NCBI RefSeq assembly: GCF_003334355.1
Contig: NZ_QOWP01000112.1
Length of the DNA stretch: 355 nt
Direction: 5' to 3' (one strand)
DNA from: Escherichia coli
Lineage (GTDB): Bacteria; Pseudomonadota; Gammaproteobacteria; Enterobacterales; Enterobacteriaceae
Part shown: one piece after another, positions 1 to 355 of the stretch
How positions within the stretch are numbered: the stretch's first letter is position 1
How the letters are laid out: the number at the start of each line of letters is the position of its first letter
Position numbers and translations under genes: made by a program
Notes under the pieces: model-generated
Databases searched by the model: none
Seen by the model: the letters and a program-made list of their open reading frames with translations, nothing else
What the model was told of the DNA's origin: nothing

Positions 1-355
1 TGAATTTGACCTTGCGGCTTAACTGTCGCTGAAGTCTCGCCAGCGTCTTCTGGTTTTTCTGAAAACTGTTTACAGGCTCAAAGACTGTGCCATCTGACAG
101 CGTGGCGAGTTTAGCCACGCCAGCATCCAGCCCGATCATTGATGCTGAAGGGTGAACCGGAGTTGATACTTCACTTTCTGTCTGAATACTGATGTACCAC
201 TTACCGCAGGACTGGCTGACAGTGACATTTTTCACAACACCCGTGACCTGACGGCTGTTCCGGTAGCGCATCCAGCCCAGTTTCGGCAGAAAAATACGGC
301 TGTTTTCCTGATCGAGCTTAACGCCCTGCGGGTAGCGGAATGCATCATTCTGTCC
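1..355 (-). CDS. tnpB: IS200/IS605-family TnpB (OrfB) RNA-guided endonuclease, internal fragment; both ends lie outside the window (N-terminal side beyond 355, C-terminal side beyond 1)
   Basis: Seen in sequence: the minus-strand frame phased to position 355 (first full codon 353-355, last 2-4) is open for 118 codons. All three plus-strand frames hit stops within the first 32 nt (tga 1-3, taa 20-22, tga 30-32) and the other two minus-strand frames also contain stops. Established knowledge, from memory: the translation carries TnpB hallmarks, namely FRYPQG (complement of 323-340), a basic/aromatic KLGWMRY segment (complement of 263-283), the beta-strand-like CGKWYISIQTE, the RuvC-I motif IGLDAGVAKLATLSDG, and the following LARLQRQLSRKVK segment. 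No alignment was run. Confidence 0.85.
116..136 (-). other. tnpB: RuvC-I catalytic motif coding segment (IGLDAGV); putative catalytic Asp codon gat = complement of 125-127
   Basis: Seen in sequence: the reverse complement of 116-136 reads atc ggg ctg gat gct ggc gtg = I G L D A G V. Established knowledge: TnpB and Cas12 RuvC-I motifs have this hydrophobic-G-hydrophobic-D-x-G form, with the Asp as first catalytic residue. Assigning this particular Asp as catalytic is inference by motif position. Confidence 0.7.

Follow-up and report, generated by a model that had tools for sequence, protein, structure and literature searches.

Among the described systems closest to the locus examined here is the TnpB of the Deinococcus radiodurans insertion sequence ISDra2, for which solved structures are available (PDB accession numbers 8bf8, 8ex9, 8exa, and 8h1j). 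The catalytic center of ISDra2 TnpB is composed of D191, E278, and D361 (PMC10097598), and the D191A mutation abolishes its cleavage of DNA (PMC8612924). Both the omega-RNA scaffold and a portion of the TAM duplex are bound by the WED segment of residues 117 to 176, and R231 and R232 contact the omega-RNA (PMC10097598). Proteins of the TnpB family are the ancestors of Cas12. In Escherichia coli K-12, IS609 is the single element of the IS200/IS605 family (PMC5009759), and its TnpB is listed among nine purified orthologues in one published study (PMC12781874).

The stretch of DNA analyzed in this study (the window; 355 bases, G+C content of 51%) is almost certainly an internal coding fragment of the tnpB (insQ) gene of IS609, the E. 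coli insertion sequence of the IS200/IS605 family, as judged from its translation, its exact in-frame matches to annotated loci, and its matches to Pfam and NCBIfam models. Positions 2..355 on the minus strand correspond to codons 107 to 224 of the 402-codon gene, i.e., to residues 107 to 224 of InsQ, and codon 225 contributes only its first base, base 1 of the window; both the start codon and the stop codon lie outside the window. In a megablast search of 5426 complete E. coli genomes, 4885 contained a match to the window, and the median among those with a match was two copies; the places of the matches are chromosomal in 9191 cases and on plasmids in 299. The identity is 100% over all 355 bases in many records, and, among the matches listed, every full-length one falls under a gene annotated in RefSeq as "RNA-guided endonuclease InsQ/TnpB family protein". 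Two exact matches are those of strain ATCC 8739 (L001), located between the glv genes and yidH, and strain 504239 (L002), in which the gene, named insQ, is flanked by ydcL and ydcO; at both loci the window is in frame at codons 107 to 224 of an intact 402-codon gene. The original prediction that the window lies wholly inside a tnpB gene on the minus strand was therefore correct.

The nucleotide identity between the window and the IS609 tnpB/insQ gene of E. coli (formerly ydcM) is complete, and there is no difference of substance. In the K-12-derived strain TOP10, the same gene is present at the ydcL-ydcO locus with 99.4% identity to the window. The IS609 copy of the K-12 lineage differs from the window at 2 bases, and the window is therefore derived from another lineage of E. 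coli or of a close relative, or from another IS609 locus. The gene is already known and belongs to a described insertion sequence, which agrees with its initial assignment to a known family rather than a novel system, and the finding is an ordinary one. The appropriate annotation label is IS609 tnpB (insQ), a described RNA-guided nuclease; beyond correct annotation the window is of little importance, and it marks a copy of a mobile element in an E. coli-type genome.

Six-frame translation of the window gave 118 codons without a stop in frame 0 of the minus strand, which is phased to base 355, and 8, 5, 8, 4, and 6 stops in the remaining five frames, as had been described at the outset. The encoded peptide of 118 amino acids is GQNDAFRYPQGVKLDQENSRIFLPKLGWMRYRNSRQVTGVVKNVTVSQSCGKWYISIQTESEVSTPVHPSASMIGLDAGVAKLATLSDGTVFEPVNSFQKNQKTLARLQRQLSRKVKF, in which the IGLDAGV motif occupies residues 74 to 80. 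The frame extends beyond both edges of the window in full-length copies, where it belongs to the 402-codon gene, i.e., it is not bounded by stops just outside the window. The open frame alone is marginal evidence for coding, because at least one fully open frame was found in 1027 of 20000 dinucleotide-preserving shuffles (5.1%; six frames, composition of the window). The chance of about 0.003 that was originally given for such a frame is approximately 15-fold too small in comparison with the shuffles; the expression (61/64)^118 = 0.0035 is valid for a single frame chosen in advance with equiprobable codons, and it ignores the six frames and the real composition. The frequency of equally long open frames in the shuffles would be compatible with a frame that arose by chance in non-coding or antisense sequence; however, the window peptide matches the profile and structure databases with E values of 1e-11 to 1e-23, and the window is exactly identical to annotated genes. 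Judged by this homology, which overwhelmingly decides the gene call, the reading as a chance product is refuted. An antisense gene on the plus strand was also ruled out, with 5 to 8 stops in each of the three plus frames. An Rfam search at the gathering threshold returned no match in the window, and a repeat scan revealed only short imperfect matches of 10 to 18 nt, mostly 73 to 90% identical and chance-like, and no structured element on either strand of the window. A separate feature besides tnpB is absent from both strands of the window.

The window peptide matches OrfB_IS605 of Pfam (PF01385; E = 2.7e-11) as well as guided_TnpB (NF040570; E = 4.8e-23) and IS200_TnpB (E = 6.4e-23) of NCBIfam, and it matches solved TnpB structures with E values of 1.5e-12 to 3e-8. 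The score of 82 bits against NF040570 is under the whole-protein cut-off of 100 bits because the window peptide is a 118-amino-acid fragment, i.e., only 118 of the 402 residues are present. The full protein has the canonical architecture of HTH_OrfB_IS605 (E = 3e-13), OrfB_IS605 (E = 2.3e-34), and Cas12f1-like_TNB (E = 2e-23), and it aligns end to end with the structures of ISDra2 TnpB (E = 5.6e-55). The assignment to TnpB is thus upheld by the OrfB_IS605 and TnpB models for the window peptide and the full protein alike.

The limits of the domains were taken from PMC10097598 and were transferred by alignment rather than from a structure of InsQ. Positions 164..343 on the minus strand encode the second segment of the WED domain (an OB-fold beta-barrel), in which InsQ residues 111 to 170 correspond to residues 117 to 176 of ISDra2 TnpB in the phmmer alignment to 8bf8_A. 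Positions 2..139 on the minus strand encode the N-terminal part of the RuvC domain (RNase H fold), InsQ residues about 179 to 224 in the alignments to 8bf8_A and 9yyg_A, and this part represents the first ~45 residues of the domain. With the same alignment-based limits, the window also encodes the last few residues of the REC domain and the linker between WED and RuvC. The basic helix LARLQRQLSRKVKF in the RuvC part corresponds in the alignment to helix alpha-1 of ISDra2 TnpB, which contacts the omega-RNA, and R220 and K221 of InsQ align with R231 and R232 of ISDra2 TnpB, respectively. By analogy, we infer that the basic helix of InsQ may contact the omega-RNA.

The GAT codon at positions 125..127 on the minus strand encodes D183, which lies within the IGLDAGV motif and supplies the first of the RuvC catalytic carboxylates (RuvC-I). 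The RuvC-I pattern of hydrophobic-G-hydrophobic-D-hydrophobic-G is present as IGLDAGV in InsQ and as G[IV]D[LV]G in three solved TnpBs that were aligned. As expected from the earlier identification of this motif as RuvC-I, its aspartate D183 is the counterpart of D191 in the alignment with ISDra2 TnpB. The RuvC-II glutamate E267 and the RuvC-III aspartate D363, which are located outside the window in full-length copies with an identical window, align with E278 and D361 of ISDra2 TnpB, respectively, and C334, C337, C353, and C356 of the TNB domain, also outside the window, align with the zinc-finger residues C331, C334, C351, and C354. The catalytic triad and the CCCC zinc finger are kept in all six tnpB copies that were compared, which represent five loci.

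ISDra2 TnpB has the same domain order as IS609 TnpB and can be aligned with it over residues 3 to 372, and the identity in this alignment is moderate by inspection. In both elements, tnpA is divergent from tnpB, and a left end and a right end are present, whereas the insertion motif is TTTAT/TTAT in IS609 and TTGAT in ISDra2. The TAM-reading WED residues T123 and N124 of ISDra2 TnpB align with Q116 and G117 of IS609 TnpB, respectively. The core of the RuvC and TNB domains is common to IS609 TnpB and the Cas12f/type V effectors; the window peptide matches V_cas_c2c8 of NCBIfam (E = 2e-16), and the full protein also matches Cas12f structures. Unlike the CRISPR effectors, IS609 TnpB sits inside an insertion sequence, and neither a CRISPR array nor adaptation genes were found near the gene at L001 and L002. 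An identification as a CRISPR effector (Cas12f/C2c8) was ruled out, since TnpB gives the stronger NCBIfam and PDB matches and the loci are without an array.

The bounds of the element were obtained from copies that are identical or near-identical to the window at four chromosomal sites (ydcL/ydcO, glv/yidH, gltX/yfeD, and inside yajI) together with the empty yajI site, and they define an IS200/IS605-type element of 1748 bp, IS609. The block common to the copies at the four sites starts with CCGGTGCGCC and finishes with GGATGTCAA. It is preceded by TTTAT in every copy, and the four sites read TTTAT/CCGG...GTCAA/flank, where the slashes mark the junctions. The empty yajI site of other strains reads ...gtttcTTTATTgagttg..., and comparison of the filled and empty sites places the element exactly between TTTAT and T; a target duplication is absent at this site. 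The right end is TCAA. These insertion and end sequences agree with the published cleavage sites of IS609, which are TTAT on the left and TCAA on the right (PMC6906374). Similar subterminal imperfect hairpins, which take the place of terminal inverted repeats, can be read off the sequence at the left end (CCCCGTCCTTCAGGGCGGGG) and the right end (CCACGTCCTTCAGGGCGTGG). At the yajI site of strain 43905 (L005, 1777-2187 and 3936-4064), IS609 interrupts this lipoprotein gene (DUF3251). Because yajI is intact in about 5083 of the 5426 genomes, the insertion of IS609 there is comparatively recent, restricted to a lineage, and inactivating for the host gene.

The 3' end of tnpB together with the right end of the element folds better than shuffled sequences (z = -3.0), and an omega-RNA in this region is plausible. 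An Rfam search at the gathering threshold of the two 10-kb loci (L001 and L002) gave nothing in the element; the only match was istR, located far off in L001. A permissive Rfam search gave only sub-threshold matches at the 3' end of tnpB (L002 5818-5944, outside the window), namely, HgcC with 22 bits (gathering score of 50), RAGATH-18 with 25 bits (44.9), and sot0042 with 15.5 bits (88). The HgcC, RAGATH-18, and sot0042 RNA families overlap or associate with the 3' ends of tnpB genes. The pile-up of their sub-threshold matches suggests kinship with the RNA of IS609.

A mechanism for IS609 TnpB can be modeled on that of ISDra2 TnpB (PMC8612924 and PMC10097598). By homology, the full InsQ would be a monomeric RNA-guided endonuclease of double-stranded DNA. 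It would bind an omega/reRNA that is produced from the 3' end of tnpB together with the right end of IS609. The final ~16 nt of this RNA, copied from the flanking DNA, would serve as the guide, and InsQ would cut guide-matching DNA beside a transposon-adjacent motif with a RuvC site that includes D183. The TAM in this case would be TTTAT/TTAT, i.e., the insertion site of the element, and the effective target would be the empty donor joint after excision, the cutting of which would favor the re-instatement of the element. The RNA binding, the TAM, and the cleavage activity of IS609 TnpB are thus predictions by analogy with the ISDra2 protein.

The tnpB gene is located inside a complete IS609 with a degraded tnpA, and the initial reading had placed the locus in a mobile element or in a domesticated descendant of one. 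A divergent tnpA remnant is situated upstream of tnpB. The best-preserved tnpA translation, that of the gltX/yfeD copy (L006), matches Y1_Tnp (PF01797; E = 3.5e-39) and retains the HVH motif and the tyrosine of SPGYF. RefSeq marks tnpA as a pseudogene in each of the five chromosomal copies examined; four of these copies show stops or a frameshift, and the fifth is without a normal stop codon. The lesions vary among the copies, with one internal stop common to two loci, a frameshift and a stop elsewhere, and loss of the normal stop elsewhere; the last of these is seen in L006, in which tnpA has no internal stop. The common internal stop, between ...GVSGR and LRRD..., is found in the ydcL/ydcO and yajI copies (L002 4250-4675, L003, and L005 2250-2675, on the minus strand of the loci). 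Since this lesion occurs at different sites, either transposition took place after the death of tnpA, through mobilization in trans, or gene conversion has occurred.

No transposition of IS609 was found in mutation-accumulation lines of K-12 (PMC5009759). Because tnpA is dead in the copies examined and IS609 is silent in K-12, the cutting of an empty donor joint would be without an obvious substrate in these genomes today. The pseudogene annotation of tnpA in five of five chromosomal copies, the transpositional silence in K-12, and the shortening of tnpB to 385 codons in L005 would each be consistent with an origin of the window from a decayed, non-functional pseudogene copy of tnpB, in which the open frame is a remnant. 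However, a TnpB-family gene is annotated in every record listed with 100% identity, the 402-codon gene is intact at both exact-match loci examined in full (L001 and L002), and none of the six copies compared has lost a catalytic or zinc-finger residue. Moreover, the pN/pS values of 0.14 to 0.46 for tnpB between copies indicate purifying selection on the protein. A pseudogene origin of the window is thus highly improbable.

About 90% of E. coli genomes retain the gene at recurring chromosomal loci, where it adjoins a dead tnpA and is under purifying selection. These features might mean that it encodes no active nuclease of the transposon but a domesticated derivative of TnpB, such as a TldR-type RNA-guided regulator that is nuclease-dead. 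On the other hand, the RuvC triad and the zinc finger are fully intact, and the gene is still found between intact hairpin-bearing ends at several insertion sites, on plasmids, and in phages, which is the pattern of an ordinary insertion sequence; we therefore consider domestication quite unlikely. The presence of an intact tnpB under selection beside a dead tnpA is a retention that the model of cutting the empty donor site does not fully explain, and this puzzle is a general question on TnpB that is already recognized. A role of TnpB independent of TnpA, i.e., guide-directed cleavage that protects the element from deletion or recombination, mobilization in trans, or a function at the level of the host, would explain why an intact and selected tnpB persists in about 90% of the genomes despite the pseudogene state of tnpA and the lack of transposition. 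We regard such a role as rather doubtful, and the persistence of tnpB equally fits an element that was active until recently and is slowly decaying.

A comparison of the tnpB copies of L001 (glv/yidH) and L002 (ydcL/ydcO), which are from different strains, showed 20 differences in 1206 coding positions, none of them in a stretch of 481 nt (nucleotides 285 to 765 of the coding sequence) that spans the whole window. By our own estimate, at the mean density of differences, a difference-free stretch of this kind is unlikely, with a chance of roughly exp(-8) for any one interval and of about 0.007 if all intervals are allowed for. This suggests gene conversion between the copies or a recently shared segment.

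The filamentous Escherichia phage If1 (L008, NC_001954.1, 2128-3174) carries a TnpB as ORF348, the old annotation of which is "homologous to eryA gene product". From GLDAGV onward, ORF348 has 96.7% DNA identity to IS609 tnpB over 643 nt, whereas its N-terminal REC and WED parts are only distantly related; the amino acid identity is 75% overall, with the aligned N-terminal part far more divergent. The mosaic junction is located inside the window, at approximately base 135, at the boundary between WED and RuvC. This arrangement suggests recombination between TnpB lineages, in which the TAM-reading lobe was exchanged, whereas the nuclease lobe and the 3' end that encodes the RNA were kept.

Insertions of IS609 have been described in P1-like phage-plasmids (PMC6906374). 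An IS609-like copy on the plasmid NZ_CP069885.1 (L004, 3683-4933) is ~95% identical and is without tnpA and the left end; its homology begins at position 518 of the element, and its right-end hairpin is tighter (CCACGCCCTTCGGGGCGTGG). Copies related to that of L004 are present in the phages SJ46, RCS47, vB_EcoM-813R1, and Morganella phage IME1369_01, the phage records being about 100 kb in length, and in 524 plasmid records, mostly from Escherichia and Salmonella.
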